Shown: positions 2,647-24,818 of the stretch, in pieces | Position numbering within the stretch: position 1 is the first letter of the stretch | Layout of the letters: each line of letters begins with the position of its first letter | Assembly: GCA_035571855.1 (NCBI GenBank) | Contig: DATNBT010000093.1 | Span: 1-33,093 of the forward strand | Direction: 5' to 3' | DNA from: Vicinamibacterales bacterium | GTDB lineage: Bacteria > Acidobacteriota > Vicinamibacteria > Vicinamibacterales > CAVVIG01 | Length of the DNA stretch: 33,093 nucleotides | Made by a program: the position numbers and the translations under genes | The notes under the pieces: generated by a model | What the model was told of the DNA's origin: nothing | Seen by the model: only the letters and a program-made list of their open reading frames with translations | Databases searched by the model: none

Positions 2647-3072
2647 ATGGACGATCGCACCACTGCATACGTGCTCGCAGCGCAGCCCGTCTTCGAGGAT
2701 CTCAGGCAGGTCGCCGCGCAGCTCGCCGGGCTGCTCGTACTCGTGGCGACAGAATCAAAAGAAGCGACGCCGGATCACCCGATGCTGCTGACGTCGCGGC
2801 AGGTCTTCGCCGCGGCTGAAGACGGGATGAAAGACGTCCGCGCCACCGAACACGCGCGCGCGCATCACCGCAGCCTGGTAGCAGCGAGCGTCTCGTTGAA
2901 TGAAGCGCTGACACGCGCGACCGCGTGGCCGATCGATATCGATGCCGTGCTTGGTCCCCTGCAACACGCGTACGCATGTCTGCAGCAGGCATCGCACGCG
3001 TTACCCGGATTTCCCGTCGTCGAAATGTCTCAGGGATGCTGTGCTCTGAGCAAGTCCCCCAACGTCTTCTGA
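2647..3072 (+). CDS. Hypothetical protein, 141 aa, predicted helical
   Basis: ATG ORF with mostly G/C third positions, though noticeably less biased than its neighbours. No motif recognised. The ATG directly abuts the terminator T-tract, leaving no room for an SD or promoter. The 3' end overlaps the convergent 3030..4970 gene by 43 nt. Confidence 0.4.
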   Translation: MDDRTTAYVLAAQPVFEDLRQVAAQLAGLLVLVATESKEATPDHPMLLTSRQVFAAAEDGMKDVRATEHARAHHRSLVAASVSLNEALTRATAWPIDIDAVLGPLQHAYACLQQASHALPGFPVVEMSQGCCALSKSPNVF

Positions 3073-4970
3073 GCCGCCGGCGACTGCGGCTGAAGCCGCA
3101 GCGCTTCCTTCGCCTCCCTGATTCCCTCGTCCAGCTTCCCCGTCATCGCCAGCGCGAGACCGAGATTTCTGTGCGCGTCGGCGTTACGCGGATCGAGCTC
3201 CGCGGCGCGGCGCAGATGCGTGACGGCATCGGCGATCTGATTCCGCGCGCCCAGCAGGACGCCGAGGTTGAAGTGCGCGTCCCCGTTGTCGGGGTTCAGC
3301 GTGACCGCGCGCGCGAACTCGTCGATGGCTTCCGTCGTCGCGCCGCCGGCTTCGAGCGCGCTCGCGAGGTTGAAATGCACGCGGTCGTCTTTCGGCGCGA
3401 GCGACACCGCCAGCCGGCCTTCGCGCACCGAATCGGCGACGCGGCCCTGCGCCTGGTACGCCGTCGCGAGGTTGCTGTGCGCCTCGGCGTCGCGCGGGTT
3501 CAGGCGCACCGCCTCGTTCAGCTCTTTCACCGCGTCGGCGACGCGTCCGGCCTGCAGGTATTTCGTCGCCAGGTAGTTGTGCGCGAGCGGATCGTCCGGG
3601 CTCACCCGCACCTGCGTTTCGCCGCCGGCGATGTCCGCTTTCAGCGCGCGCACGTTGTAGTCGCGCATCAGGACGGCGAGATCCTCGGCGCGGTGCGGCT
3701 GCACCTCGAGCCACATCGCCCCCATTTCGTCGGCCGACTTCGGCCCCCATTTGATGCGCGAGGCGCCCTTCGAGTTGTCGTACGTGATGCGCATCGACAG
3801 CGTCGTGCCCGCCGGCAGCGCCACCGGCGACGCGTACCTGTACTGATCCTGCCAGCGGAAATCCCACTGCTTGATCCACAGCAGCCATTTCGTGCTGCCG
3901 TCCGGCAGCGTCGCCTTTGCCTGCATGTCCTTCGCGTGGTAGTGCGCGTGCGGGTAGATGCTCGTCGCGTCGACGTCGGCCGGCAGCACGTAGCTGTCTT
4001 CGACGACGTACGCCTTCTCGCCGGCGGGGATGTCGATCGACTTCGACTCGAGCCGGACGAGAAACGGCTCGCGCGCCGGCGCCTGGTCCGTCACGAAGAG
4101 GCCGAGCACCGGCCGCACCGGCTCCGGCTTCCCCGTCGGCAGCAGATGCATCTGGACGACGAGGTCGCTGCCTTTCTCGAGCGTCCAGGCGCGATCCGCG
4201 GGCTCCATGTACGGCGCCTTTCCGGGCGACCAGCCGTAGACGTTCTGCACCTGATCGTCGGGCATCGCCGCGAATCCCGGCTGTCCGTCGCGGCCGTCCA
4301 GCTTGCGCGACACCCGGAACCGATCGACGCCGACGCTCGCGTGGTGGAACATCCGCGGGTTGTCGGCGCGCAGCTCGATCGCGCGCACGTACATCGCCTG
4401 ACGCGTGGCTTGCCCTGAGCGTGAGTCGAAGGGGACGGGGATGACGAAGTTCCTGAACAGATCGCCGCCGGAGGCGGGCACGGTGAACGCCTTCGGCGCC
4501 TCCACCACGAGGTCCGGTTGCCCGAGCTGCCAGCCGTTCGGGAGATCGGGCAGCGGCGGCTTCGCGGCCGGGTCGCCTTCGGGCGCGCCCTGCTCCGCCC
4601 ACGTCCGCAGCAGCGCGATCTGCGCGTCGCTCAGCGTCCGCGCGCCCGCGAAGTCTCCGTAGCCGGCGGCCGGCAGCCACGGCGGCATCGTCTTTCGCTC
4701 GACGGCCGACGCGATCTGCTTCGCGTGCGCCGCGACGTCTTTGTATTCGAGCACGCTGAAGGGAGCGCCGGCGAAACAAATCGGATCGCCCGAGGCCGTC
4801 GTCCGCGAGCCGTCAATCGGCCGGTGACACGTCGCGCAGTTGGAGTAGACGATCGGCGCGATGTCTTTGTTGAAGGTAACGACGTGTAGCGGCTGGGCCT
4901 GCGGCCTCTGCGAACACGCGGCCGCAAGAAAGAGGCAGGAGAGGCAGGAAAGGCGGGACGGGAAAGACAT
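3030..4970 (-). CDS. Lipoprotein fusing a c-type cytochrome domain, a PHM/DBH-like copper type II monooxygenase core and C-terminal TPR repeats
   Basis: Signal peptide with lipobox LFLAAAC (Cys19). Haem motif CATCH at residues 45-49, with KTMPPW downstream. Copper-ligand-like residues are FHH (209-210), QMH (275), HAH (341-343) and SADEM (Met416). Their spacing matches the PHM CuH/CuM ligands. About 5 TPR repeats occupy residues ~460-640 (e.g. AEAHSNLATAYQAQGR, GDAHFNLGVLLGARN, ADAHRNLGLALAMTGK). Confidence 0.85.
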   Translation of the reverse strand: MSFPSRLSCLSCLFLAAACSQRPQAQPLHVVTFNKDIAPIVYSNCATCHRPIDGSRTTASGDPICFAGAPFSVLEYKDVAAHAKQIASAVERKTMPPWLPAAGYGDFAGARTLSDAQIALLRTWAEQGAPEGDPAAKPPLPDLPNGWQLGQPDLVVEAPKAFTVPASGGDLFRNFVIPVPFDSRSGQATRQAMYVRAIELRADNPRMFHHASVGVDRFRVSRKLDGRDGQPGFAAMPDDQVQNVYGWSPGKAPYMEPADRAWTLEKGSDLVVQMHLLPTGKPEPVRPVLGLFVTDQAPAREPFLVRLESKSIDIPAGEKAYVVEDSYVLPADVDATSIYPHAHYHAKDMQAKATLPDGSTKWLLWIKQWDFRWQDQYRYASPVALPAGTTLSMRITYDNSKGASRIKWGPKSADEMGAMWLEVQPHRAEDLAVLMRDYNVRALKADIAGGETQVRVSPDDPLAHNYLATKYLQAGRVADAVKELNEAVRLNPRDAEAHSNLATAYQAQGRVADSVREGRLAVSLAPKDDRVHFNLASALEAGGATTEAIDEFARAVTLNPDNGDAHFNLGVLLGARNQIADAVTHLRRAAELDPRNADAHRNLGLALAMTGKLDEGIREAKEALRLQPQSPAAQKTLGDLLRAQHP

Positions 4971-5026
4971 CCTTCTTATTCTGTCTTACCGTCCTGCCTG
5001 TCCCGCCCTTCCCGCCCCTCCTGCCT
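4933..5026 (-). promoter_or_regulatory. Long imperfect inverted repeat (RNA hairpin) bracketing the start codon of the 3030..4970 gene
   Basis: The outer block 4933..4959 pairs with 5000..5026: 24 Watson-Crick pairs plus 3 A.C mismatches that become G.U on the minus-strand RNA. The inner block 4961..4968 pairs with 4983..4990 at 7 of 8 positions. The loop 4969..4982 reads AGAAUAAGAAGGAU on the minus strand, which is a purine-rich SD-like sequence plus the AU of the AUG. Confidence 0.5.
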
Positions 5027-5038
5027 ACGTAGACTGCG

Positions 5039-8000
5039 CTAGAACTGGACCTGCACTCCGAAGTCGACGAACCGCGGCGTCATGATGACCGTCGGCGCGA
5101 GCCACGAGGTGCCGTAGGTCTGCTGATACGCGTTGTTCGTGTTGGTCGGATTCGCGTTGAACAGGTTGTAGACCGACACCGTCGGACGGATCGTCGTCGC
5201 CCGGAACTTGATGCTCTTCGTGAACCGGATGTCCGTCTGGTAGATGCGATCGAGATACAGCAGACCAGGCTGCACGAGGCTCACCGACGGCGCCACGCTC
5301 GAGAACGTGCGGCCGAGCGTGAGACCCGGGGTGGTGTTCGTCAGCGGGTAGTTCGCGTTGATCTGCGCGCCCGGCAGGCTCTGGAAGCTGATCGAGCCGC
5401 CGATGCCCCACGGGAACGGATAGGTCAGCTGTCCCTTGACGTTCGGCTGGAACGGCGGATGCACGTCGCAGTACGCCGTCGTGTGCGGCGTGTTCGTGCT
5501 GAGCGTGCCGACGCCCACCGACGTGATCTGGAGGTTGTCCTCGAAGTCGCAGATGTTGAAGCGCTCGCGGCCCCAGCTCACGCCGCCGTTGACGAGGATG
5601 CCCTTCGCCAGGCGCGCGTTCGCGTCGAAGTCGATGCCGTCGTACACGTCCTGCACCTTGCCGAAGTTGTCAGCCTTCTGAATCAGGCTGATCGCCGTCG
5701 TCGGCCGGACGAGGTCGAAGTATCCGCACTGCTGGCCGCCGGCGCCCGGCAGAGACACGCCGGTCACGGACGGAGCCGTCGGAACGCCGATGCAGTACGG
5801 GGTGTAGCTGGCATTGGTCACCGCGGTGTTCTGCGTGGCGAAGAAGTTGCCGAACCAGCGGCGCGAGTACCCGAGGTACACCGAGACGCGCGGGGCGACC
5901 TGCTGCTGGATGCTCAGCTGCGATTCCCAGTTGTACGGACGCACGCCCCAGCCCGTGACGATGGCCGGATCGTAGGTCGTCGTCGGCGCCACCTGCGTGC
6001 CGAACGTCGGCGCCGCGAGCGGACCGCACGTGCCGTTGGCGAGCGGGTTCGACAGGTTGCAGTCGAGACGCGGATCGAGCTGGCCGGCCGGATCGGCGCT
6101 CCACGTGCGCGTCGTCGAGTTGATCGTCGACGTCACGGGATTGACCGCGCGCGCGATCGTGTAGCCGTCGGCGACGACGTAGCGGCCGATGCTGCCCTTG
6201 ATGGCCGTCTTGCCGTTGCCGAACAGATCGTAGGCCGCGCCGATACGCGGATCGAAGTCCTTCCAGTTCGGGACGTTGTCGAGGCCGGCAAACGAACGCG
6301 CCGGCGTGAACGGACCCGCGTTGAGGCTCTGCGGATCGACCGAGGCCTTCAGGAAGTCGATGCGCGCGCCGTAGTTGAGCGTCAGGCGCTTGATGGTCCA
6401 CTGATCCTGCGCGTAGAGGCCCATGTTGTAGTTGACGGTCTCGTGGAACGAGATCGGCGTCGCGAACTCGGTGATCGAGAACGGCGCGCCGTTGTTCAGC
6501 GTCAGCGACAGCGAGTTGTTCGGCTCCTGCGTGACGTAGCGCCACTGGTGCATCAGGTTGAAGCCGACCTTCGTGCTGTGCGAACCGGTGACGTACGACA
6601 CCGAGGCGCGGTAGTTGATCTGGTTGCTGCGGTTGGCGCCGTACTGGGTGCCCGCCGATCCCCAGGTCGACGGCATGCCGGGCTGCGGCAGGCGCTCGGT
6701 GATCTGGAACTGCGTCTCAGGCACACCGGGCTGACGGAAACCGTGGAAGTCCTGCGCCGTCAGCGTGCCGCCGGCTTCGAGCAGCAGCTTGCTGCTGACC
6801 GGCGAGCTCCAGCTGGCCTGGATGATGTACTGCGGGATGTTCTTGAACTCGGGGCACGCGCTGATGGCGGTCAGGAAGCTCGGCACGAAGCAGTTGCCGA
6901 AGTCCGTGTACTGCCAGTCGTAGTACGCGTTCACCTTGTTCTTCGGGCTCACCTGCGTCGTCAGACGGGCCGCGGCGCTCTGGTGCCACACCGGGAACAG
7001 GTTCTGCGCCGTGGTGCAGTTGCCGGCCGCGTCCTTGTTACAGCTGTAGATCTTCTCGGTGAAGTCCGCGTCCTTGAACGATCCGGCGACGTTGTTGTAC
7101 GTGCCCCAGTGGCGGAAGCCGCCGTAGATCCACATGCGGTCCTTGATGATCGGGCCGCCGGCGTCCGGGTTGATGTCCCAGATCTTGTTGACGAGGTTCG
7201 CGCTCTTGAGGCCCTGCGAGATCTGCGTCGCGTCGAGGTTGTTGCTCTCGAGCGACTGATTCGTGAAGCGGCCGTCGAACGTTCCGCGGAAGACGTTGCT
7301 GCCTTCCTTCGGGATGAAGTTCGACATGACCGACGCGCGCTCGAACTCGGCGCCGTTGCCGCCGGTCTGGAACGTGATTTCCTGCGCGAGGGCGTTGTTC
7401 AGGTAGTTGCCGTACTGGAGGCCGCCCTGGCCCGAACCGTTGATGATCGGCATGCCGTCGACCATGACGAGGCTGTCCGCCGCGCGGCTGCCGTGGACGA
7501 CGAGGTTCATGCCCGTCTCGGGGATCGACCCGCCGACGTTCTGCGAGACGCCGGTGACGAACACGCCGGGCGTCATCGCCGCGAAGCTGACGAAGTTGCG
7601 GTCGGTCGGCAGCGCGTCCATGACTTCGCGCGACGACGTCTGCTTCTGCACGACGTTCTGCGTGTCGACGATGGGGCTTTCGCCGGTGACCGTGATCGTC
7701 TCGGAGACCTGGCCGACTTTCATGTCGGCGTTGACGTTCGCCGTGAACGCGGACGTCAGCTCGATGCCTTCGCGCTTCACCGTCGCGAAGCCCGTCAGCG
7801 TGAACGTCACGGAATAGGTGCCCGGACGGAGATCGATGATCTTGTAGGCGCCCTGGCCGTCGGTGACGGCCGTGCGGACTTTCTCAATCAGCGCGGGGCT
7901 GGCGACTTCGACGGTCACGCCCGGCAGAACGGCGCCGCTCGTATCCTTCACGACGCCCGCGATTGAGCCCGACTGACCCTGCGCCAGCGCGAACGCGGGC

Positions 8001-8056
8001 ACGAGAGCCAGAAGCAGCATCGCGATGCTGATTCGTACAGCTCGAACAACTCCCAT
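5039..8056 (-). CDS. TonB-dependent receptor with an N-terminal carboxypeptidase-regulatory-like domain
   Basis: Signal peptide MGVVRAVRISIAMLLLALVPAFALAQ. CarboxypepD_reg-like segment GSIAGVVKDTSGAVLPGVTVEVASPALIEKVRTAVTDGQGAYKIIDLRPGTYSVTFTLTGF. Plug-like region (VVHGSRAADSLVMVDGMPI), a long barrel, and a C-terminal ...FGVQVQF. A strong SD, GAGGAGGAA, lies 4 nt upstream of the ATG. Confidence 0.92.
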   Translation of the reverse strand: MGVVRAVRISIAMLLLALVPAFALAQGQSGSIAGVVKDTSGAVLPGVTVEVASPALIEKVRTAVTDGQGAYKIIDLRPGTYSVTFTLTGFATVKREGIELTSAFTANVNADMKVGQVSETITVTGESPIVDTQNVVQKQTSSREVMDALPTDRNFVSFAAMTPGVFVTGVSQNVGGSIPETGMNLVVHGSRAADSLVMVDGMPIINGSGQGGLQYGNYLNNALAQEITFQTGGNGAEFERASVMSNFIPKEGSNVFRGTFDGRFTNQSLESNNLDATQISQGLKSANLVNKIWDINPDAGGPIIKDRMWIYGGFRHWGTYNNVAGSFKDADFTEKIYSCNKDAAGNCTTAQNLFPVWHQSAAARLTTQVSPKNKVNAYYDWQYTDFGNCFVPSFLTAISACPEFKNIPQYIIQASWSSPVSSKLLLEAGGTLTAQDFHGFRQPGVPETQFQITERLPQPGMPSTWGSAGTQYGANRSNQINYRASVSYVTGSHSTKVGFNLMHQWRYVTQEPNNSLSLTLNNGAPFSITEFATPISFHETVNYNMGLYAQDQWTIKRLTLNYGARIDFLKASVDPQSLNAGPFTPARSFAGLDNVPNWKDFDPRIGAAYDLFGNGKTAIKGSIGRYVVADGYTIARAVNPVTSTINSTTRTWSADPAGQLDPRLDCNLSNPLANGTCGPLAAPTFGTQVAPTTTYDPAIVTGWGVRPYNWESQLSIQQQVAPRVSVYLGYSRRWFGNFFATQNTAVTNASYTPYCIGVPTAPSVTGVSLPGAGGQQCGYFDLVRPTTAISLIQKADNFGKVQDVYDGIDFDANARLAKGILVNGGVSWGRERFNICDFEDNLQITSVGVGTLSTNTPHTTAYCDVHPPFQPNVKGQLTYPFPWGIGGSISFQSLPGAQINANYPLTNTTPGLTLGRTFSSVAPSVSLVQPGLLYLDRIYQTDIRFTKSIKFRATTIRPTVSVYNLFNANPTNTNNAYQQTYGTSWLAPTVIMTPRFVDFGVQVQF

Positions 8057-8070
8057 TACTTTCCTCCTCG

Positions 8071-8106
8071 AAAAAAGAAAAAGGACAGGCCATCATATCG
8101 CCAGTC
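8071..8106 (-). terminator. Weak intrinsic-terminator-like hairpin plus U-tract between the cytochrome gene and the TonB receptor gene
   Basis: On the minus strand the sequence is GACUGGC-(9 nt loop)-GCCUGUC, giving 6 of 7 pairs with one U.U mismatch. It is followed by C and then UUUUUCUUUUUU (plus-strand A-run 8071..8082). Such a T/A run is striking in this GC-rich DNA. It ends 1 nt before the SD of the receptor gene. Confidence 0.35.
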
Positions 8107-8123
8107 AGAATGAAGATAGCGGC

Positions 8124-8152
8124 TTTATCGATACTAATCGCGCATCGTTCAA
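8124..8152 (-). promoter_or_regulatory. Candidate sigma70-like promoter, TTGAAC-N17-GATAAA
   Basis: Read on the minus strand in the AT-rich 8057..8162 spacer. The call rests on hexamer resemblance only, and the host's promoter rules are unknown. Confidence 0.2.
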
Positions 8153-8162
8153 CGGATTGGAT

Positions 8163-9146
8163 CTACCGCGACCCTGAAAGGGTCGCTTTCCGCAAACGGT
8201 CAAGTTCGCGCTTGGCCTCGCTGCTCCCGGGATCGAAGCTCAGCGCTTTCGTGAGGTCGGCGACGGCCGACTCGCGGTCACGTTTCGCGAGGTGCGCCCT
8301 GGACAACTCGAGATAGGTCGTGACGGACTTCGGGTAGAACTCGGCGTTCAGCTGCAGCCAGGCGAGCGCGTCGTCCGGCTTTATGGTCGAGAGCGACTCG
8401 CGCGCGAGATCGACCAGCGTCGACTCACGGAAATCGTAGGCGCCGGAGTCGAGATACTGCTGGCGCAGCTCGCGGTACTGCACCACCGCCGCGCCCTCCC
8501 CCTTCCCCAGCATCGTCTGCCGCAGGACGTCGGAGAGCTGCGCCGGCACCGGCACGCCGCGGTGGCACGTCGCGCACTCCACGCGCGTGATGTCCGCGGC
8601 CGGCTTCTTCAGTGCGCTCGCGAGCGTCGCGTTGATGTCCCGGGTCATCGCGAGCATGACGCGCGCGGTGAGCTTCGTGCGCTTGTCGTCGGCGGCGTAG
8701 TCCATCTGCGGCCCGCCGCGTCCACGTCCGCGGCCCCGGCCGGCCTGCGCGGCGGCCCCCTGTCCCTGCTGCCCGCCCCGTGCGCGCTGCTGTTGCGCCT
8801 GCTGAGCCGCCGCCGCAGCCGCAGCAGCCGCCGCGGCCTGCTGCGCCTCCAGTTCTTCGACGGTGAGGAGCGGCGCCGCCTGTTCGATGTGGCAGTAGGT
8901 GCACTGGACGCCGAGCGCGCGCGTGAACTGCTGCATCTGCGCGACGACCTGCGCCGGCGGCGTGTCTTTCGGGAGGACCTGGAGATTCTTCGGCGCCGGC
9001 GGTCCGGCGGGAGCCGCGCCCTGGCCCTGCTGGGCCGTGACAATCGCGGTCGCACAGAGCAGCGTGGCTGTCAGGCAGATGTAGAGCAGACCTTCAGGTC
9101 TGCGGATGCGCCGGCAGGCCTGAAGGCCTGCACTCCGAGTGTTCAT
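8163..9146 (-). CDS. Exported dihaem c-type cytochrome (photosynthetic-reaction-centre cytochrome c-like fold family) with a TPR-like C-terminal domain
   Basis: KNLQVLPKD...FTRALGVQCTYCH (CxxCH at 8889..8903) and VECATCHRGVPVP (8562..8576) match the pattern I associate with PF02276-like acidobacterial cytochromes. A hydrophobic signal segment LLYICLTATLLCATAIVTAQQ is present. The C-terminal part is helical and TPR-like. The ATG at 9146 overlaps the ankyrin stop as ATGA, but the start is uncertain because REP-like hairpins lie within codons 6-21. Confidence 0.8.
   Translation of the reverse strand: MNTRSAGLQACRRIRRPEGLLYICLTATLLCATAIVTAQQGQGAAPAGPPAPKNLQVLPKDTPPAQVVAQMQQFTRALGVQCTYCHIEQAAPLLTVEELEAQQAAAAAAAAAAAQQAQQQRARGGQQGQGAAAQAGRGRGRGRGGPQMDYAADDKRTKLTARVMLAMTRDINATLASALKKPAADITRVECATCHRGVPVPAQLSDVLRQTMLGKGEGAAVVQYRELRQQYLDSGAYDFRESTLVDLARESLSTIKPDDALAWLQLNAEFYPKSVTTYLELSRAHLAKRDRESAVADLTKALSFDPGSSEAKRELDRLRKATLSGSR
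9086..9131. repeat. Inverted pair of REP-like GC hairpins, each a 7-bp stem with a 4-nt loop
   Basis: GCAGACC-TTCA-GGTCTGC lies at 9086..9103 and GCAGGCC-TGAA-GGCCTGC at 9114..9131, separated by 10 nt. The 19-mer GGCAGGCCTGAAGGCCTGC recurs exactly at 24800..24818. Confidence 0.6.
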
Positions 9147-10624
9147 TTCGCGTCCCGCTGCGCGATCAGCTCGCGCAGGAGCGCCGCCGTCTGCTGGCGC
9201 ACGGGCGGCGGACCGCCGGCGCGTCCGCGCGCGCCGATGCCGAGCGCGAGATCGACCGGCGTGTGGCCCTGCCTGTCCTTCACGTCGAGCATCGCGCCGT
9301 GCGCGGCGAGGTACTTCACGATGTCGTCGGACACCTGCGCGGCGAAGTGCATCGCCGTCTGGCCCGCGTCGTTGACCGCATTGACGTCGACGCCGTGCTC
9401 GACGAGCACCTGGACGCCGTTGAACATGTCGCGTTCGGTGCCGATGTCTTTCTGGAAGACGCCGGTCCCGCGGCCGTTGCCGGCGGCGAACATCAGCGCC
9501 GTCGTGTGATTGTTCGTCGTCATCGCCGCGTCGGCGCCGTGCGCGAGCAGGATGCGCATCGCGGCGGCGTCGCCCGTCCTCGCGGCGCGCATCAGCGGCG
9601 TCGCGCCGGCGCCGAGCAGGCCGTCGCCGGGCGTGTGCGCGCGCTGGACGGTCGCGGACCGCAGCTGCGCGTTCACGTTGGCGCCGTGCGCGAGGACCAC
9701 TTTCATGAGATCGAGCGCGGAGATCGTGCTCGTCGACTTGCGGTTGGGCCGCCCGTAGATCTCGGCCGGCATGTCCATGTCGACCGCCGCGTACAGGACC
9801 GCCATGCCGGACGTGTCCGCGAGATTCGGATCCGCGCCGCGCTCGACGAGCATGGCGGCGACGTCGTAGTGCTCGTTGATGGTCGCGAGGATCGCCGGAG
9901 TCGACAGATCGGGATCGCGCGCGTTCTTGTCCGCACCGGCGTCGACGAGCACCTTCGCGGCGTCGAGCGATCCCTGGCGCGCCGCGTACATCAGCGGCGT
10001 CCAATGCCCGTGCGGCAGGATCGTCAGCACGCCTTCGAGGCCGAACCGGTCTTTCGTGTATTTCAGATCGCTCGTCAGCGCGTTGACGTCGGCGCCGTGC
10101 GCGATCAGCTCCTTCGCCGCCTCAGGATGATTTTCGGCGGCGGCCCACATCAGCGCGGTCTCGCCGAGGCGGTCTTCGCGCGCGTTGACGGCCGCGCCGT
10201 GTTCGATGAGCAGCCGCACGGCTTTCGGATTGCCCGTGCGCGCCGCCGCCATCAGGACGGTCTCCCCTTCCTTGATTACTGCCTTCGCGTCGGCGCCGGC
10301 GTTCAGGAGGAGCTCGGTCATGTCGCCGTTCGCGTTGGCCGCGGCGAGCGACAGCGGCGACACGCCGTAGCGGTTCACCGCGTTGACGTTCGCGCCGGCG
10401 GCGATCAGTTCTTTGGCGGTCTCGAGATCTTCGCCGCGAACGGCCCAGTCGAGCGGGGTCGTGCCGTCCGGCTCCGCCGTGTTGACGGCGGCCTTTCCCG
10501 CAGGCGAGGCGAGGATCGAGTGGACGGCGCTGCGATCGCCGGCTTTGACGGCGTCAGCCAGCGTCGGCCCCGCGGCGGAGATCGAGGTGAGCGCGAAGAG
10601 AACCGCGACCGCTGCGTATTTCAC
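9143..10624 (-). CDS. Exported ankyrin-repeat protein, about 10 repeats
   Basis: GTG start at 10624 gives VKYAAVAVLFALTSISAAG, a signal peptide. Repeated ankyrin consensus is present: G.TPL..A...G......LL..GA..N (e.g. DGTTPLDWAVRGEDLETAKELIAAGANVN, GWTPLMYAARQGSLDAAKVLVDAGADKN, GATPLMRAARTGDAAAMRILLAHGAD). The long upstream extension in the ORF track (to 11080) overlaps the DUF1552 gene and is rejected. Confidence 0.9.
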   Translation of the reverse strand: MKYAAVAVLFALTSISAAGPTLADAVKAGDRSAVHSILASPAGKAAVNTAEPDGTTPLDWAVRGEDLETAKELIAAGANVNAVNRYGVSPLSLAAANANGDMTELLLNAGADAKAVIKEGETVLMAAARTGNPKAVRLLIEHGAAVNAREDRLGETALMWAAAENHPEAAKELIAHGADVNALTSDLKYTKDRFGLEGVLTILPHGHWTPLMYAARQGSLDAAKVLVDAGADKNARDPDLSTPAILATINEHYDVAAMLVERGADPNLADTSGMAVLYAAVDMDMPAEIYGRPNRKSTSTISALDLMKVVLAHGANVNAQLRSATVQRAHTPGDGLLGAGATPLMRAARTGDAAAMRILLAHGADAAMTTNNHTTALMFAAGNGRGTGVFQKDIGTERDMFNGVQVLVEHGVDVNAVNDAGQTAMHFAAQVSDDIVKYLAAHGAMLDVKDRQGHTPVDLALGIGARGRAGGPPPVRQQTAALLRELIAQRDAK

Positions 10625-11949
10625 GCGAACAATCCGGAAATGGGCGACTCGCCGTCGCCGAACTGCTTCAGGTTGTCGCCGAACTTGTGCGCCACCGCGA
10701 GCCACAGGTCGCCGACCGGCGTCCGCACCGGCAGCTCGACGTGGCGATAGCCTTTGCCGAGGGCGCCGCCCATGCAGACGACCGGCAGCGGATCGGTGAG
10801 ATGGCCGTTCGGATTGCCCATGCCGCCGCCGCTGATGACCATCGAGTGATCCAGCAGCGTGCCGTCGCCGTCCTCGATCGACTTCAGTCTGGCGATGAAC
10901 TTCGCGAACAGCTGCATGTGATACGTGTTGATCTTCACGTTCTCCGCGATCTTGTAGGGATCGTTGCCGTGGTGCGACACCGTGTGGTGCTGCTCGGTGA
11001 CGCCGATGTTGTTGTACGTCCGCTGGCTCAGCTCGCGCGACAGCATGAACGTGAACACGCGCGTGACGTCCGCCTGCCACGCCGCGGCGACGAGGTCGTA
11101 CATCAGGCCGACGTGATCTTCGAACGAATCCGGCACGCCGACCGGCGCGCCCACGGTGACGGTCGACGAGCCGTGCGCCTCGGCCTGCTGGATGCGGCGC
11201 TCGATTTCACGCAGGTTGTCGAGATACTCGTTGACGCGCGTGCGGTCGCGGCTGCCGAGCGTCCTGCGCAGGTCGCTCGCTTCGGCGGTGATCGAATCGA
11301 GGATGCTCTTCTCCGTGCGCGCGCGCGTCGCGCGGCTCTCGATCGTCCCCGCCTGTCCGAACAGCCGCTCGAACACCAGCCGCGGGTTGATCTCCATCGG
11401 CAGCGGGGTCGTCGGCGAGCTCCACGAGATCGTGTTGAGGTAGGCGCAGCTGAATCCCGGCGAGCACGCGCCGACGTAGCCCGTGAAGTCCTCTGTCGCG
11501 ACTTCGAGCGAGGGGAGCGGGGTGTCCTGGCCGATCTGCTTCGCGATGACCTGATCGATCGTCGTGTTGGCGTAGACGTCTTCGGCTTCAGTCCGCTTCG
11601 GCCACACGCCGGTGAGATAGCCGCCGACGCTGACCGCGTGGTCGCCGACCTGGCTGCCCGGATGCGACCGCGTCAGGTTCTTCACCACGACGAGATGGTC
11701 CTTGAACGGCTCGAGCGGCTGGAGGATCGGCGTGAACTCCCAGCCGGTGCCGAACGACTTCGGGAAGAGCTCGTCGACGATCGCGCCGTTAGGAATGTAG
11801 ATCGCGCCGAACCGCGTCTTCGGCGCGGCCGCGGCCTTCACGAGCGGCGTGAACGCCGGCACCATCGCGTCGAGCAGCGGGAGCGCGATCGCCGCGCCGG
11901 CGCCTCGAAGGAACGTTCGTCGTGAGAGCGAGAGTTTCGTAATGAACAT
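10621..11949 (-). CDS. DUF1552 domain protein with a twin-arginine signal
   Basis: The N-terminus MFITKLSLSRRTFLRGAGAAIALPLLDAM is the characteristic Tat/DUF1552 opening. Its position immediately downstream of a DUF1592-type gene is the canonical pairing. Its stop overlaps the ankyrin GTG start as GTGA. Confidence 0.9.
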   Translation of the reverse strand: MFITKLSLSRRTFLRGAGAAIALPLLDAMVPAFTPLVKAAAAPKTRFGAIYIPNGAIVDELFPKSFGTGWEFTPILQPLEPFKDHLVVVKNLTRSHPGSQVGDHAVSVGGYLTGVWPKRTEAEDVYANTTIDQVIAKQIGQDTPLPSLEVATEDFTGYVGACSPGFSCAYLNTISWSSPTTPLPMEINPRLVFERLFGQAGTIESRATRARTEKSILDSITAEASDLRRTLGSRDRTRVNEYLDNLREIERRIQQAEAHGSSTVTVGAPVGVPDSFEDHVGLMYDLVAAAWQADVTRVFTFMLSRELSQRTYNNIGVTEQHHTVSHHGNDPYKIAENVKINTYHMQLFAKFIARLKSIEDGDGTLLDHSMVISGGGMGNPNGHLTDPLPVVCMGGALGKGYRHVELPVRTPVGDLWLAVAHKFGDNLKQFGDGESPISGLFA

Positions 11950-11950
11950 C

Positions 11951-14299
11951 TCAATTCACCTTCGCGATTTGCTGCGGTTGCGCCATCCGCATCGTGAACG
12001 GGACGCTGTTTACGACCCCGAGGACGATCGTCTGAAACCGGTAATCCTTCGCCGCCGCTTCGCGCATGATCGCACGAACGGCCGGCATGTCGTGCGCGTC
12101 GAGCCCTCGTCCGAGCGCGTAAATCAGCATTTTTTCCGTCATCGTGCGCACGAACACGTCGGGATGCGCCATGAGCGCCTTCCGGAGCGTCACCACCCCG
12201 TCGACCTTGCTGCCGTCGACCAGCTCGCCCGTCGCGTCGATCGGCTTGCCGTTCTCGTCCGTCGACCGCCACGAGCCGGTGACGTCGAAGTTGTCGAGCG
12301 ACAGGCCGATCGGGTCCATCACCTTGTGGCACGTCGCGCACACCGGGTTCCTGCGGTGCTCCGCCATCTGCTCGCGCATCGACTTCGGCGCGTCGTTCGG
12401 ATTCTGATCCGCGAACACGCCGGCGCCGGGAATCGGCGGAGGCGGCGGCACCGGCAGGCCCAGGATGTTTTCGAGAATCCACTTGCCGCGCTCGACCGGC
12501 GACGTGCGTTCGGCGTGCGACGTCACCGCGAGGACGCTGCCCTTGCCGAGCAGGCCGAAGCGGCGCTCGTCGGTGAGCGTCACGCGGCGGAACCGGCTGC
12601 CGTAGATGCCGGGAATGCCGTAGTGTTTCGCCAGCCGCTCGTTCACGAACGTGTAGTTGCCCGTCATCAGGTCGAGGACGGACCGGTCTTCCCGCATGAT
12701 GCTCTCGAAGAAGAGCTCCGTCTCGCGCTTGAAGGCCGAGCGCAGGTTGTCGTCGAAGTCCGGGAAGAGATCCGAGTTCGGCTGGACGTTGCGGACGTTG
12801 CGCAGCTGCAGCCACTGTCCCGCGAAGTTGTCGATGATCGCCTTCGACTTCGGATCGGCGAGCATGCGGTGGACCTGCGCGTCGAGGACGGCCGGATCCT
12901 TCAGCTTGCCCTGCTCCGCCACCGCCAGCAGCTCATCGTCGGGAATGCTGCTCCAGAGAAAAAACGACAGGCGCGACGCGAGCTCGATGTCCGGCAGCCT
13001 GTACGGCGTGCCCGGCTTGACGTTGACCGGATCCTTCTCGACGCGGAAGACGAACCGCGGCGCCGCGAGGATGCGCATCAGCGCCGCTTCGACGCCGGCC
13101 TCGAAGGTCGAGTTCTTCGACGCCTCGCGGTAGATCTGCATGATGCGCTGCATATCCACAGCGCCGACCGGTCCTCGATACGCACGATGCGCGATCCTCG
13201 ACAGGATTCGCTCCGCGCATGTCCCGGTCCCCCTGCACGTGAAGATCGAGCGCCGGCTCGGCGTGTCGCCGGGGCCGCTGGAGTTGAACGGGCCCGTGAT
13301 CGTGAACGTCTGCATGTGCGGACGCCCGGCCCAGTCGAAGTTGTCGATCGAGCTGCGCACGAACGGCTGCAGGCGGTTCGGCTCCTGCACCGGCGCATCC
13401 TCGACGAAGGCGACCGAGACGATGTGCGGACCGGCTTTCACCGGCACGCGCACGCGCAGCCGCGCGTCCACCGCGTCGCTCGTGTCGGTCGGCTTGTCGA
13501 ACAGATCCGCGAGATCTTCCTTCCCGCCGATCGTCGCCAGATACACGCGCCTGCCGTCGATCGCGAACTCGACGTCATGCGGATACTCGAGGCCGCGCAT
13601 GATGTTCAGGTTCGTCCGGTAGAGCTTCACCTGCAGCACGTAGTCGCCGTCCAGCGGGAACGTGTAGCGCACCGACGTGCCGCCGATCGTGCCGAGCGGG
13701 AGGCCTTCGATGTGCTGGTCCTGCGAGAGATCCTGGCGGATGCGGAACGTGTCGCTGCCGGCGGTGATGTCGGGATCGCCGACGGCCACGGCGGCAATCT
13801 TCGCCGCGGCCGACAGGTACTTCTCCTGCAGCGACGGCGACACGCCGAGCACGTCGGAAATGTTGTCGAATCCGTACGCCGCATCGTCGGGCGGCAGGAG
13901 CGAGGTCACGTCGACGTCGAGCGCGAGCAGATCGTGAATCGCGTTGGCGTACTCGCTGCGGTTGAGACGATGCAGGATCGGCGCGCCGGGATTGGGATGC
14001 GCGAGCGCGTCGGCGTCGAGCTCGCGTTCGATCGCGGTCTGCACCGATCGATAGGTCGCCTCATCAGGGCGCCGGGCGCCCTGCGGCGGCATCGCGCGCG
14101 CCTGCAGCTTGCGCACGACTTTCTCCCACATCTCGGGATCGAGCGCGGGATGCGCGGCGTCCGCTTTCTCGAGCGACAGCCCCGAGGTCTTCAGCCGATC
14201 GTTGTGGCACGTGACGCAGTACTGCTTGATCGCGTCCTGCTGCGCGCTGACGACAGCCACCGACAGCACAACAGCAACGGCCCAGACCCCGCGTTTCAT
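11951..14299 (-). CDS. DUF1592/DUF1588/DUF1585-family (planctomycete-type PSCyt/PSD) protein with c-type haem motifs
   Basis: Signal peptide MKRGVWAVAVVLSVAVVSAQQ. Haem motifs CVTCHN...AMPP and NPVCATCHKVMDPIG. Family hallmarks are SRLSFFLWSSIPDDELL, FAGQWLQLRN, NERLAKHYGIPGIYG, TSPVERGKWILENILG and DPIGLSLDNFD. The track start at 14320 is a TTG, so I prefer the ATG at 14299. Confidence 0.9.
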   Translation of the reverse strand: MKRGVWAVAVVLSVAVVSAQQDAIKQYCVTCHNDRLKTSGLSLEKADAAHPALDPEMWEKVVRKLQARAMPPQGARRPDEATYRSVQTAIERELDADALAHPNPGAPILHRLNRSEYANAIHDLLALDVDVTSLLPPDDAAYGFDNISDVLGVSPSLQEKYLSAAAKIAAVAVGDPDITAGSDTFRIRQDLSQDQHIEGLPLGTIGGTSVRYTFPLDGDYVLQVKLYRTNLNIMRGLEYPHDVEFAIDGRRVYLATIGGKEDLADLFDKPTDTSDAVDARLRVRVPVKAGPHIVSVAFVEDAPVQEPNRLQPFVRSSIDNFDWAGRPHMQTFTITGPFNSSGPGDTPSRRSIFTCRGTGTCAERILSRIAHRAYRGPVGAVDMQRIMQIYREASKNSTFEAGVEAALMRILAAPRFVFRVEKDPVNVKPGTPYRLPDIELASRLSFFLWSSIPDDELLAVAEQGKLKDPAVLDAQVHRMLADPKSKAIIDNFAGQWLQLRNVRNVQPNSDLFPDFDDNLRSAFKRETELFFESIMREDRSVLDLMTGNYTFVNERLAKHYGIPGIYGSRFRRVTLTDERRFGLLGKGSVLAVTSHAERTSPVERGKWILENILGLPVPPPPPIPGAGVFADQNPNDAPKSMREQMAEHRRNPVCATCHKVMDPIGLSLDNFDVTGSWRSTDENGKPIDATGELVDGSKVDGVVTLRKALMAHPDVFVRTMTEKMLIYALGRGLDAHDMPAVRAIMREAAAKDYRFQTIVLGVVNSVPFTMRMAQPQQIAKVN

Positions 14300-14391
14300 T
14301 TGTTGAATTCTATCGAACAAATGTCATTTTACTCAAGCGGCCAATGTTAAGCTTCCGCCTTCGCTGCCTGGCGGCGTCGGCGGACAAACCT

Positions 14392-15270
14392 ATGAATCGC
14401 TATTCGTTGTGGGTGATGGAATACGCGCACGTGATGCAGCAGCCGACGAGCCTGTTCATCTACGGTGCGCACAACCAGGGCCATCGCAAGATGCCCTACG
14501 GCTACATCGTCATCAAAGGCGCCGGGATCACGGCGATGATCGACGTCGGCTACAACCACGTCGCATACGGCAAGGAGATGGCGGAGATGTGGGGCGTCGC
14601 CGGCTACCAGCCGCCCCAGACCGTGCTCGCCGAGGTCGGCGTCACGCCCGGCGAGGTGTCGCGCATCTTCATCACGCACGCCCACTTCGACCACATGGGC
14701 AGCCTCGATCAGTATCCGAACGCGACGTTCTACATCCAGGAGCGCGAGCTCTCGAAGTGGGTGTGGTCGATGTCGCTCGAGCGGCGCTTCCGCTGGCTGA
14801 TGCTCGGCATCGACCCGGCGGACATCATGAAGACCGTCGATCTCGCGCGGCAGGGACGGCTCGTGTGCGTCGACGGCGACCGCGAGGACGTCCTGCCGGG
14901 GATCGACCTGCACGCGGCGCACGATACGCACACGTGGGGATCGCAGTACGTCACCGTCCGCAACGACGGCGCGAGTAATTCGCAGAACTCGTGGGTGTTC
15001 GCCGGCGACCTCGTCTACGCGCACGAGAATCTGCGCGGCACCGATCCGAACGACCCGCAGTACGTGCCCGTCGGTCTCGCGACCGGCAGCCAGTTCTCGC
15101 TGATCATGACGGCCGAGGAGATGATCGCGCGCGCCGGCGGCGACTACACGCACGTCATCCCCGTCCACGAAGAGCGGCTGAAGGACGTCTTCCCGTCGCG
15201 CATCACGAAGACAGGTCTCCGCATTACCGAGCTCGCGCTCGCCGACGGCGAGAAGAGCCGCGTCAAGTGA
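14392..15270 (+). CDS. MBL-fold metallo-hydrolase, N-acyl-homoserine-lactonase-like family
   Basis: HxHxDH motif ITHAHFDHMG, with downstream metal-ligand-like H/D motifs (AAHDTHTWG, FAGDLVY, IPVHEE). The start is taken at the MNRYSLWVMEYAHV ATG (14392), which leaves 92 nt of divergent promoter space. The ATG at 14344 is an alternative. Confidence 0.85.
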   Translation: MNRYSLWVMEYAHVMQQPTSLFIYGAHNQGHRKMPYGYIVIKGAGITAMIDVGYNHVAYGKEMAEMWGVAGYQPPQTVLAEVGVTPGEVSRIFITHAHFDHMGSLDQYPNATFYIQERELSKWVWSMSLERRFRWLMLGIDPADIMKTVDLARQGRLVCVDGDREDVLPGIDLHAAHDTHTWGSQYVTVRNDGASNSQNSWVFAGDLVYAHENLRGTDPNDPQYVPVGLATGSQFSLIMTAEEMIARAGGDYTHVIPVHEERLKDVFPSRITKTGLRITELALADGEKSRVK

Positions 15271-15935
15271 GTTCGCTGTCCGGCAAGATCGCGCTCATCA
15301 CAGGATCGACACAAGGCCTCGGTCAGGCCATCGCGCGGAAGTTCTCCGAAGCCGGCTGCATCATCATCAACAACGGCATCGTCGACGGCCGCGTCGTCGG
15401 CGCCGACCTGCGCAAGCCGGCGGACATCGAGAAGATGATCCGCGATGCCGGACCGATCGACATCCTCGTCAACAACGCCGTCGTCAGGCATCAATCCCCG
15501 ATTGAGAGCTTCCCGTCCGACAAGTGGGACGAAGCGCTCGCGGTGAATCTGTCGTCGGCGTTCCACACGATTCGTCTTACGCTCCCGGGAATGAAAGCGC
15601 GCGGATGGGGACGCATCATCAATATGTCGTCGATCTACGGCCAGCGAGGCGCGGCGAACCGGGTCGGCTACGTGACGACGAAGACGGCGCTGATTGGATT
15701 GACGCGCGCGATCGCGCTCGAAGTCGTGAATACCGGCGTGACGTGCAACGCCGTCTGCCCCGGCACCGTCGACGTGCCGATGCACCAGGGCACGGACCTG
15801 AAAGGCAAGCAGCCGACCGGCCGGCTGATTCCCCTCGACGACGTGTCGGCGCTGGTGCTGTTCCTGTGCGGACCGAACAGCAACGACATCAACGGATCGA
15901 TCCTGCCGATCGACGCGGCATGGTCGTCCGGCTAA
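15267..15935 (+). CDS. Short-chain dehydrogenase/reductase (SDR), unusually short at 222 aa
   Basis: Motifs TGSTQGLG (TGxxxGxG), NNAV, MSS and YVTTK (YxxxK). The GTG start overlaps the MBL stop as GTGA at 15267..15270. The stop TAA lies in the loop of a REP-like hairpin. Confidence 0.85.
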   Translation: MSSLSGKIALITGSTQGLGQAIARKFSEAGCIIINNGIVDGRVVGADLRKPADIEKMIRDAGPIDILVNNAVVRHQSPIESFPSDKWDEALAVNLSSAFHTIRLTLPGMKARGWGRIINMSSIYGQRGAANRVGYVTTKTALIGLTRAIALEVVNTGVTCNAVCPGTVDVPMHQGTDLKGKQPTGRLIPLDDVSALVLFLCGPNSNDINGSILPIDAAWSSG

Positions 15936-16376: not shown

Positions 16377-17513
16377 CTATTTCGGATACACCGGCAGCGT
16401 GACGTGATCGCCGAACGTGGCCTTCAGTCCTTCGATGGCGCACGCCTCGTCGCCGCCGCCGCCCGCGCCGCCGCCGACGCCGATCGCGCCGATCATCTGG
16501 CCGTCCACGACGATCGGCAGCCCGCCGGCATTCGTGAAGAAGCCGAACTGCTCGATGTTCCGCGCCAGGCCGGCCGGGTTGTTGCGCGCCTGCGCGTTGT
16601 ACACCGACGTCGGCACGCGCGTCTTGAGCGACGTCTGCGCCTTCAGCAGCGCCGTGCGGATGTTGTTGAACACCTGTCCGTCCATGCGCTCCGCATGAAC
16701 CATCTCTCCGGCCGTGTCGAGGACGAAGAGCGACATGCCGCCGCCCTTCGCGGCCGAGAAGTCGCGGCACACGTTCGCGACCTTCTTCGCCGCGGCGAGC
16801 GAAATCTGATTGCCGTCGTACACGGTCGTTCCCGCTTTCGAGCTGACCACCCACTCCGGATTCGAGATGCTCGATTTCGGCGCCGTCGTGCTGGCGAACC
16901 GTGGCACCGGCGCCGGAGTGGCGGGAGGCGCGGGCTGCGGGTTCGGTAGATCCTCGACAAGCGGAGCGACGTTCGCGGCGCCGAGCACTTCCTGCATCGC
17001 CTTGTGCCCGCAGATTTCGTCGCTCCACACCGGCACGCGCGGCGCCGAGCCGCCGATGCCGATGACGCCGATCATCTGTTTGTTGATCACGACGGGCAGA
17101 CCGCCGGAATTCGGAAACATGCCGAGCTGGATTCGCTGGAGCTCCGCGTTCGGATCGCGGCGCACCTGGTTCATGACCAGCTTGCTCGAGCCGCGCTGCA
17201 TGAGCGCGGTGCGCGCCTTCATTTCCGCCGTGATGATGTTCAGGTAGCCCTGTCCGTCCATGCGGTCCATGTAGACGAAGTTGCCGTCGTCATCCAGCAC
17301 CGCGATGCTGATGCCGACGTTCTCCGCCGCGGCGAGCCGCTCGCACGCTTCCGAAATCCGCTGCGCCGTGTCCAGATTGATCGTGTTGAAATCCTGGATC
17401 TGCTCGGCCAGCTTGCCGCTGACGACGAACTGCGACGGGACGTTCTGCGCTGCGACGCCGGCGCCGAGCGCGAGGACGACCGCAGCAACCGCTCCCGTGA
17501 ACCGCGTACTCAT
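16377..17513 (-). CDS. Secreted protein with two tandem GlcG/HbpS-like (DUF336) domains
   Basis: Signal peptide MSTRFTGAVAAVVLALGAGVAAQ. Two copies of the DUF336 signature are present: NSGGLPVVINKQMIGVIGIGGS and NAGGLPIVVDGQMIGAIGVGGG. An AAGGAG SD lies 7 nt upstream of the ATG at 17513. The track start at 17531 contains that SD and is rejected. Confidence 0.85.
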   Translation of the reverse strand: MSTRFTGAVAAVVLALGAGVAAQNVPSQFVVSGKLAEQIQDFNTINLDTAQRISEACERLAAAENVGISIAVLDDDGNFVYMDRMDGQGYLNIITAEMKARTALMQRGSSKLVMNQVRRDPNAELQRIQLGMFPNSGGLPVVINKQMIGVIGIGGSAPRVPVWSDEICGHKAMQEVLGAANVAPLVEDLPNPQPAPPATPAPVPRFASTTAPKSSISNPEWVVSSKAGTTVYDGNQISLAAAKKVANVCRDFSAAKGGGMSLFVLDTAGEMVHAERMDGQVFNNIRTALLKAQTSLKTRVPTSVYNAQARNNPAGLARNIEQFGFFTNAGGLPIVVDGQMIGAIGVGGGAGGGGDEACAIEGLKATFGDHVTLPVYPK

Positions 17514-17532
17514 GTCTCTCTCCTTACACAAG

Positions 17533-24800: not shown

Positions 24801-24818
24801 GCAGGCCTGAAGGCCTGC
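24801..24818. repeat. REP-like hairpin GCAGGCC-TGAA-GGCCTGC
   Basis: Identical to 9114..9131. It starts immediately after the peptidase stop (TAG 24798..24800) and ends 5 nt before the ATG of the next gene, so it fills most of the 23-nt spacer. Confidence 0.55.

Follow-up and report, generated by a model that had tools for sequence, protein, structure and literature searches.

An operon for exported DUF1592, DUF1552, ankyrin and dihaem cytochrome proteins in a Vicinamibacterales bacterium, a candidate periplasmic redox module

The stretch of DNA analysed here (the window) comprises 33,093 nucleotides (nt) of contig DATNBT010000093.1 from a Vicinamibacterales bacterium of the phylum Acidobacteriota (assembly GCA_035571855.1). 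Four consecutive minus-strand open reading frames (ORFs) occupy positions 8163-14299. In order of reading, they encode a DUF1592-family haem protein, a DUF1552 protein, an ankyrin-repeat protein, and a dihaem cytochrome c with a tail of tetratricopeptide repeats (TPR), as listed in Table 1. Judged from gene arrangement and N-termini, this strand appears to carry one operon for an exported, periplasmic protein module. Comparison with related loci showed that the DUF1592, DUF1552 and ankyrin genes form a conserved core trio, which is characteristic of an Acidobacteriota-centred clade. The cytochrome gene joined the trio later, in one Vicinamibacterales sub-lineage, where its coupling to the ankyrin gene is stable.

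The four genes are closely joined. The stop codon of the DUF1592 gene (TGA, 11953-11951) is followed by one base (11950) and the ATG of the DUF1552 gene at 11949. The GTGA at 10624-10621 combines the GTG start of the ankyrin gene with the DUF1552 stop, and the ATGA at 9146-9143 combines the ATG start of the cytochrome gene with the ankyrin stop. A motif scan found exactly four CxxCH haem motifs in the operon. Those of the DUF1592 protein are CVTCH (14218-14204) and CATCH (12340-12326), whereas the cytochrome has CTYCH (8903-8889) and CATCH (8576-8562). The N-termini of all four products, as read from the sequence, resemble export signals. These are MKRGVWAVAVVLSVAVVSAQ in the DUF1592 protein, the twin-arginine (Tat) motif SRRTFLRG in the DUF1552 protein (RR codons 11922-11917), VKYAAVAVLFALTSISAAG in the ankyrin protein, and a long n-region followed by LLYICLTATLLCATAIVTAQ in the cytochrome. 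These results agree with an earlier sequence-only reading of the locus, which had described the 1-nt gap and the two overlaps, two CxxCH motifs in each haem protein, and Sec or Tat signals on all products, although the Tat score is slightly below its cut-off (20.1 bits against 22.7 for Pfam TAT_signal). The DUF1592, DUF1552, ankyrin and reaction-centre-cytochrome calls of that reading were likewise borne out by the Pfam and NCBIfam run. One tightly coupled unit of exported proteins is therefore supported, as far as sequence features can tell. The four genes are taken as real, because an ENA metagenome contig (locus L010; numbers with the prefix L denote compared loci) gives the same gene calls, with products 99-100% identical, and because each protein has many homologues. 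The DUF1592 protein also has 782 amino acids (aa) in the L010 call; its gene has an alternative TTG start at 14320, and the public call of the cytochrome gives 326 aa. The terminator scan found no terminators above chance between the operon genes. The candidate promoter is the sole sigma-70-like site within 4800-14600; about 0.8 such sites are expected by chance, and it is therefore weak evidence.

Table 1. Features of the operon and of its downstream flank in the window.
Feature	Position	Strand	Basis or remark
Gene 1, DUF1592-family multidomain protein, Sec signal, 782 aa	11951..14299	-	Pfam, gene calling
Gene 2, DUF1552/HXXSHH protein, twin-arginine (Tat) signal, 442 aa	10621..11949	-	PF07586 8e-94
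Gene 3, ankyrin-repeat protein, Sec signal, 493 aa, GTG start	9143..10624	-	Pfam, junction overlap
Gene 4, exported dihaem cytochrome c, TPR tail, 327 aa	8163..9146	-	Pfam, NCBIfam
Sigma-70-like promoter candidate, TTGAGT / 18-nt spacer / TAGAAT	14307..14336	-	just upstream of gene 1
TonB-dependent-receptor-like outer-membrane protein (CarboxypepD_reg, Plug, barrel)	5039..8056	-	Pfam; starts 106 nt after cytochrome gene
Lipoprotein-like protein, 646 aa, PSCyt1-like haem motif, TPR repeats	3030..4970	-	Pfam, motif scan

Conservation of the gene order was analysed in three sets of 80 species-representative loci, of which set C, built on the cytochrome, is described further below. Set A contains the closest relatives of the DUF1552 protein (63-81% identity), from Vicinamibacterales, Bryobacterales, and Terriglobia. 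Loci from a first cytochrome search, two metagenome contigs, four plasmid records, and second copies at the same loci were added, which brought the count to 86 DUF1552 copies, each with 1.2 kb or more of sequence downstream. A full-length ankyrin orthologue directly follows DUF1552 on the same strand in 80 of these 86 copies (93%). Its identity is 47-78% among the acidobacterial copies, and a signal-peptide-like N-terminus was found in 71 of the 80 orthologues by a crude test. DUF1592 precedes DUF1552 throughout set A. Paralogous modules, with DUF1552 at 43-52% identity, also have the ankyrin gene (L038, L052, L062, and L076), and Novosphingobium sp. KACC 22771, a cultured alphaproteobacterium, carries the trio on a plasmid (38%, 42%, and 32% identity for DUF1592, DUF1552, and ankyrin, respectively). 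Set B represents the DUF1552 clade of Planctomycetota and Verrucomicrobiota. Its query was a single Planctomyces protein, which replaced a mixed-phylum alignment that was too divergent for the locus search. Among the 69 set B loci with downstream room, there was just one ankyrin match, whose adjacency to DUF1552 was not shown, and no cytochrome-TPR match. No conserved gene follows the DUF1592/DUF1552 pair in set B, where 29 of 66 loci have a same-strand downstream gene; the bare pair is also found on annotated plasmids of Planctomyces sp. SH-PL62 and Chondrinema litorale. The trio is considered the conserved core because the ankyrin gene is near-universal in set A and near-absent in set B, and because the cytochrome is lineage-restricted. 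All three sets are best matches to their queries rather than random samples, and since close relatives share ancestry, the locus counts are not independent events. The loci are mostly metagenome-assembled genomes with sometimes wrong taxonomic labels, and ORF calling in such high-GC DNA is crude.

The ankyrin protein matches Ank_2 (6e-63, 209.9 bits, five stretches) and Ank (178.1 bits, six stretches). The previous estimate of about ten repeats was approximate: six canonical repeats were recognised by a regular expression, with further degenerate ones around them. The sequence-only reading had also described the DUF1592/DUF1552 pair as extended here by the ankyrin gene. That gene is no peculiarity of this locus; it is a conserved third gene across three acidobacterial groups. 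The proposed check of gene neighbourhoods thus gave a divided answer; the co-occurrence of the ankyrin gene is conserved, whereas a cytochrome gene after it is confined to one Vicinamibacterales sub-lineage.

The cytochrome contains two reaction-centre-type haem units (Pfam CytoC_RC, 3e-14) and TPR repeats, and scores 90.3 bits with the NCBIfam model c_type_nonphoto (NF033196; cut-off 70). Both CxxCH motifs, Met71, and Met164 are invariant in 18 homologues, each Met lying in the helix before a motif. The haem unit, a Met-ligand helix followed by CxxCH, is that of PufC (PF02276) and of the NF033196 relatives, and is present twice here. In contrast to PufC, this protein has two haems instead of four, a TPR tail, and a low-complexity insert, and the organism gives no sign of a photosynthetic context. 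It scores only 57.9 bits with the PufC equivalog model NF040706, far below the cut-off of 150. These profile matches indicate a non-photosynthetic reaction-centre-type c cytochrome rather than PufC. The insert between the haem units (nt 8700-8880, residues ~90-148) consists of poly-Ala/Gln followed by GRGRGRGRG. It is present in all close homologues and absent from the more distant cytochromes of L003 and L006, and is specific to this lineage. The first 60 nt of the gene contain two repetitive extragenic palindrome (REP)-like 18-nt palindromes (9086..9131, minus strand), which form a long predicted hairpin (-38 kcal/mol, z = -2.9). The palindrome GCAGGCCTTCAGGCCTGC and its variant occur in three copies in the window, against 0.02 expected by chance; the third copy (24801-24818) is located directly after the stop codon of ORF 23112-24800 (plus strand). 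The other two may modulate expression of the cytochrome gene, in which they code for an N-terminal extension (SAGLQAC..RPEGL) that the homologue P0004 shares.

Homologues of the cytochrome-TPR protein are spread over Acidobacteriota, Gemmatimonadota, Ignavibacteria, Rhodothermales, and Zixibacteria. Among the best 80 of 501 relatives (set C, species-representative loci), the operon type of the window was found in just five loci, whose cytochromes are the closest to that of the window (at least 51% identity). A protein database contained at least 120 homologues, all at least 52% identical among the matches listed. Six homologues were sampled (52-100% identity), and all six directly follow a gene for a protein of ~500 aa. 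This upstream gene was confirmed as ankyrin by Pfam in five cases, and these five share the 4-nt overlap, which recurs in L009, L175, L177, and L178. Moreover, the equal size of the longest contigs suggests that 12 pairs of cytochrome and DUF1552 homologues share contigs. The description of this product as a reaction-centre-cytochrome-like dihaem protein with a TPR tail therefore stands, whereas its status as a general part of the module does not.

This distribution raises the question of whether the genes are merely neighbours. The cytochrome might serve another enzyme, or the receptor and lipoprotein genes downstream, and the overlaps would then reflect compact packing. About 70 of the 80 set C loci are not near a DUF1552 module, and the downstream lipoprotein carries a haem motif too. 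At L105, L109, and L110, the cytochrome gene directly follows a gene for a Tat-exported thiamine diphosphate (TPP) enzyme, which is a likelier partner than the nearby module. The divergent arrangement of these three loci was considered as an independent link between module and cytochrome and was rejected for the same reason. On the other side, the ankyrin-cytochrome overlap of 4 nt is kept at 54-57% cytochrome identity, with a 7-nt gap at 52%. The four-gene order is also kept in L009 and L177, which have neither the receptor nor the lipoprotein gene, and a 93% linkage of ankyrin to DUF1552 cannot be chance. The ankyrin linkage and the persistent overlap contradict an absence of shared function, which we therefore regard as quite improbable.

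The DUF1592 and DUF1552 domains were first described in Rhodopirellula baltica. The DUF1592 protein of the window has an N-terminal class-I cytochrome c domain, followed by PSD3, PSD5, PSD4, PSCyt3, and PSD2. Its Pfam matches include PSD4/DUF1592 (1e-50), PSCyt3 (3e-32), and Cytochrome_CBB3 (8.5e-8). The five PSD/PSCyt3 domains that define the family (PF07631 with PF07627, PF07624, PF07626, and PF07637) occur in the canonical order; their scores are 171.8, 111.5, 81.6, 80.6, and 57.7 bits against gathering cut-offs of 23-34. The two CxxCH motifs are well conserved, with 72 of 74 full-length relatives retaining both. The C-terminal CATCH (residues 654-658) lies in the PSCyt3 domain, and C654, C657, and H658 are invariant in 21 sequences, including those of Planctomyces, Chondrinema, and Sphingobium. 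The N-terminal cytochrome domain is a separate gene in Planctomyces and is absent in sphingomonads. Single-sequence and profile searches of the PDB found no solved relative of the protein. With all defining Pfam features present, the locus can be assigned to the DUF1592/DUF1552 module. It shares architecture, gene order, Tat motif, HxxSHH, and the C-terminal CxxCH with the pair of Planctomycetota and Verrucomicrobiota, and differs from it by the exported ankyrin protein as a fixed third member in Acidobacteriota and by the cytochrome-TPR protein added in this lineage. According to He et al. 2017 (PMC5615132), genes that encode PSCyt3 usually adjoin an unknown gene family.

The DUF1552 protein scores 315.1 bits with PF07586 (cut-off 30), and its HxxSHH motif is HTVSHH (residues 322-327, nt 10986-10969). 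Conservation was analysed in 86 diverse sequences of 34-55% identity. H322 and H326 are invariant, and H104, D132, Q133, D294, R297, and H383 are invariant or nearly so; the Tat arginines R10 and R11 are at least 90% conserved. C162, C168, H279, H327, D367, and H403 are additional invariants within the acidobacterial clades. Neither sulfatase nor DUF1501 models were linked to the protein by Pfam at E up to 10. An AlphaFold2 model was then built from an alignment of 150 sequences including the paralogous clade (predicted local distance difference test, pLDDT, 74.9; predicted template modelling score, pTM, 0.76); a first model from 30 close homologues (pLDDT 56.8) gave meaningless Foldseek matches and was discarded. 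In a Foldseek search of the PDB with the second model, all 50 among the matches listed belong to the alkaline-phosphatase superfamily, including S1 sulfatases, LtaS, YejM, alkaline phosphatase, phosphopentomutase, and phosphonoacetate hydrolase. The probability was 1.00 for nearly all of the best matches, with E-values from 1.7e-5 to 5e-3 and template modelling (TM) scores of ~0.4. A helical insert (~189-292) and a loop of low confidence (158-183) plausibly account for the moderate TM scores. DUF1552 is thus predicted to have the core alpha/beta fold of this superfamily. The known enzymes differ from it: DUF1552 has no sequence similarity to sulfatases and alkaline phosphatase, contains the helical insert, and has an obligate haem-protein partner. 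When D103-H104-AVSVGGYL-T113-G114 is aligned with what we take to be the sulfatase signature, CxPxRxxxxTG, T113-G114 fall in register, and Asp103-His104 appear to stand at the position of the Cys, Ser, Thr, or formylglycine nucleophile, which is a lead. Conservation and model together suggest that DUF1552 is probably an alkaline-phosphatase fold with a remodelled His-rich, putatively metal-binding site. Export by the Tat pathway would fit folding, and perhaps cofactor uptake, before export. At locus L009 (7116-8446), the DUF1552 gene is in two pieces (226 and 217 aa) in an otherwise intact four-gene operon, which points to a frameshift or an assembly error.

The DUF1552 protein, a putative Tat substrate, had been proposed as possibly cofactor-bearing. 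A metal-site protein is indeed the most likely form of this idea. However, the fold is usually used for hydrolysis, and a non-redox function therefore stays open. In such a function, the module would serve hydrolytic nutrient acquisition. DUF1552 would be a metal-dependent esterase acting on phospho-, sulfo-, or similar esters, the substrate would enter through a TonB-dependent-type protein, and DUF1592 would bind or present it. The haems would then be structural or sensory, and the cytochrome gene an unrelated passenger. This is consistent with the Foldseek matches, all to sulfatase, LtaS, alkaline phosphatase, and phosphopentomutase types, and with the hydrolases among the fourth genes of other loci (M19 dipeptidase, amidohydrolase, and metallo-beta-lactamase). 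A receptor-like gene also follows the module in several Vicinamibacterales (L001, L002, L012, L096, L175, and L178), and directly follows the ankyrin gene in L037. It is, however, missing from L009, L177, and most loci, and such receptors are very numerous in Acidobacteria. By motif comparison, Asp103-His104 apparently replace the nucleophile. In addition, the haem motifs are kept almost without exception, across phyla too, and dedicated electron carriers have been recruited independently beside the pair. He et al. 2017 (PMC5615132) describe Verrucomicrobia in which the neighbourhood of PSCyt genes includes sulfatase and carbohydrate-active genes, as the hydrolytic function would have it. Overall, we consider it unlikely, with enough in its favour to be taken seriously.

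The fixed ankyrin partner suggests another comparison. In Pseudomonas aeruginosa and Myxococcus, the periplasmic ankyrin of katB-ankB is needed for full activity of a haem catalase. As in the window, a signal-peptide ankyrin gene there lies directly downstream of an exported haem enzyme gene, with which it is co-expressed (PMC12754779). The partners are different here, namely a c-type haem protein and an alkaline-phosphatase-fold protein, and Pfam found no catalase domain in the operon or its flanks; the likeness is by analogy only. AnkB is also, we presume, much smaller than the ankyrin of ~490 aa described here. The precedent named in the sequence-only reading is therefore useful as an analogy, and fails with respect to the catalase.

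The module might accordingly act in detoxification or stress defence. DUF1592 would be peroxidase-like or reduce electrophiles, and the ankyrin would support it as AnkB supports KatB. Proteins of the vicinal oxygen chelate (VOC) and metallo-beta-lactamase folds would act on by-products. Apart from the katB-ankB precedent of an exported ankyrin with a haem enzyme (Howell et al. 2000, as cited in PMC12754779), several neighbours fit this proposal. In Bryobacterales and Terriglobia, the module is followed by a gene for an exported VOC (glyoxalase/dioxygenase-fold) protein. Among 66 acidobacterial loci, 10-11 have such a gene after the ankyrin gene, often within 6-40 nt, and two sphingomonads have it after the pair. 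Genes for a metallo-beta-lactamase-fold protein and a short-chain dehydrogenase/reductase (14344-15935, plus strand) are divergent from the operon, as in L175. The metallo-beta-lactamase gene alone is divergent in L013; it lies downstream in L074, L079, and L087, and in L074 and L087 the orthologue is ~1.8 kb 3' of the ankyrin gene. Near the operon (16377-17531, minus strand), there is also a gene for an exported protein with two HbpS-like domains (DUF336, haem-degrading or haem-sensing type). On the other hand, Pfam and NCBIfam found no catalase or known peroxidase domain in the operon products, and DUF1552 would be left without a role. The VOC and metallo-beta-lactamase folds span many unrelated chemistries, and no regulator of the oxidative-stress type turned up in the window, where no search was aimed at one. 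A function in detoxification is thus improbable.

Electron carriers beside related modules favour a redox role. In the Sphingobium herbicidovorans plasmid pMSHV, the DUF1592/DUF1552 pair is followed by genes for cytochrome c' (PF01322) and cytochrome b561 (PF01292). In Novosphingobium sp. RL4, it is followed by genes for an exported VOC protein, a high-potential iron-sulfur protein (HiPIP) with a Tat signal (PF01355, 25 bits against a cut-off of 22), and cytochrome b561. Sphingomonads have thus independently recruited carriers beside the pair, which gives independent support to a redox role. Relatives of the cytochrome-TPR protein adjoin pyrroloquinoline quinone (PQQ) dehydrogenases in five Bryobacterales/Terriglobia loci. 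Clustering of the cytochrome neighbours was noisy, with spurious ORFs in high-GC DNA, and only this association was retained from it. Other relatives are found beside the Tat-exported TPP enzyme of L105, L109, and L110 and near a molybdenum hydroxylase in L003. In L147 (6455-10431, Terriglobia), an orphan DUF1552 gene without adjacent DUF1592 is followed after 17 nt by a cytochrome-TPR gene and then by a quinohaemoprotein gene, whose product is a PQQ dehydrogenase that starts with a cytochrome c domain. Here, DUF1552 and the cytochrome-TPR family are linked in another way. Since most relatives are away from the modules and some are beside periplasmic dehydrogenases, the gene contexts suggest that the family may be a general electron carrier for exported dehydrogenases. 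Another hint of redox chemistry, by analogy, comes from Cellvibrio Cbp2D, which combines a DUF1587 domain with a c-type cytochrome domain and has been studied for a possible role in donating electrons to lytic polysaccharide monooxygenases (PMC8981238). The earlier suggestion of a redox module is thus plausible in view of the neighbouring electron carriers.

The best reading of the locus, to which we give an even chance, is a periplasmic haem-metalloprotein module wired to soluble electron carriers. DUF1552 would be the catalytic or substrate-binding metallo-subunit, and the haems of DUF1592 would relay electrons to or from it. The ankyrin protein may be a periplasmic assembly or bridging subunit, comparable to AnkB supporting catalase KatB. 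The cytochrome-TPR protein would be the soluble carrier connecting the module to the respiratory chain. The operon structure and the conservation of the haem and Tat motifs are observed directly, and the fold is seen in the structure model; the complex, the metal, and the direction of electron flow are what we infer. A bolder version is that the DUF1592/DUF1552 proteins form an unrecognised class of periplasmic oxidoreductases. An alkaline-phosphatase fold would have turned into a His-ligated redox metal centre, which c-type haems would connect with soluble carriers (cytochrome c', HiPIP, or the dihaem cytochrome-TPR protein) and, beyond these, with membrane cytochrome b561 and the quinone pool, with the ankyrin protein as an obligatory structural or assembly subunit in Acidobacteriota. 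We put this forward tentatively and think it rather doubtful in its full extent.

Several points weigh against the haem-metalloprotein reading. No functional study of the DUF1592 or DUF1552 family was found in the literature searched, in line with the earlier remark that the pair is widespread and of unknown function; DUF1552 comprises 16,083 clusters at 50% identity. To our knowledge, the characterised enzymes of the alkaline-phosphatase superfamily are hydrolases, transferases, or mutases, and none is an oxidoreductase. Searches of the PDB with the single sequence and with the 86-sequence profile found no solved structure similar to DUF1552, and the model is of medium quality, as its pLDDT and TM scores indicate. 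The metal site is suggested by conservation and the physical association of the four proteins by operon structure, in each case a single line of evidence. The cytochrome gene is absent from most ankyrin-containing modules, in which the fourth gene is variable. Finally, the module is present in several copies in acidobacterial genomes, and chance could therefore account for part of the adjacency to cytochromes.

A similar logic is found in the pairs of PSCyt1/PSCyt2/PSD1 (DUF1549/DUF1553) with DUF1501 genes, in which a large planctomycete-type cytochrome c protein also stands beside a Tat-exported protein of the alkaline-phosphatase clan, to which we take DUF1501 to belong in Pfam. These are different families with no detectable sequence similarity to the module; they are likewise uncharacterised and have no known ankyrin partner. 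Planctomycetota, Verrucomicrobiota, and Acidobacteriota are abundant in soil and water, and DUF1592 with DUF1552 is among their most expanded gene pairs of unknown function. The literature searched describes neither the trio with ankyrin, nor its extension by the cytochrome-TPR gene, nor an alkaline-phosphatase fold for DUF1552. The predicted fold of the putatively Tat-exported subunit, the fixed ankyrin partner in one large clade, and the electron carriers and VOC proteins recruited repeatedly and independently provide handles on the family. These are the first clues that can be put to use for this very large family, which they make experimentally approachable: Novosphingobium sp. KACC 22771, Novosphingobium sp. 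RL4, and Sphingobium herbicidovorans MH are cultured carriers of module variants and candidates for genetics. If the redox reading is true, it would mean new chemistry for the alkaline-phosphatase superfamily and a rare case of a periplasmic ankyrin protein as an enzyme subunit.

Downstream of the operon, the receptor-like gene is placed outside the core because it is absent in L009 and L177. The lipoprotein-like protein has the haem motif FNKDIAPIVYSNCATCH (CATCH at residue 45) and a His-rich central domain with a weak, sub-cut-off match to PF03712 (copper type II monooxygenase, C-terminal; E 7.5e-4). Its N-terminal part has no sequence match in the PDB; a similar N-terminal domain is encoded directly upstream of DUF1592 in L084. 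The lipoprotein and receptor genes are paired in L001, L010, L017, L175, and L178, and a downstream extension of the operon by these two genes is possible. In 7 of 66 acidobacterial loci (e.g. L032, 10828-11619), the ankyrin gene is directly followed by a gene for an exported protein of ~260 aa, which has no Pfam match and carries the motif RTFDGHPDLSGIWQT. A long ORF at the start of the window (4-2574, plus strand; 856 aa) matches nothing in Pfam at E up to 0.001. Contigs named 'uncultured Bifidobacteriaceae bacterium' (L001/L095, L013, and L115; assembly CAZOIK01) carry Vicinamibacterales-type operons, 64-84% identical to that of the window, and the Bifidobacteriaceae label of this assembly looks wrong.

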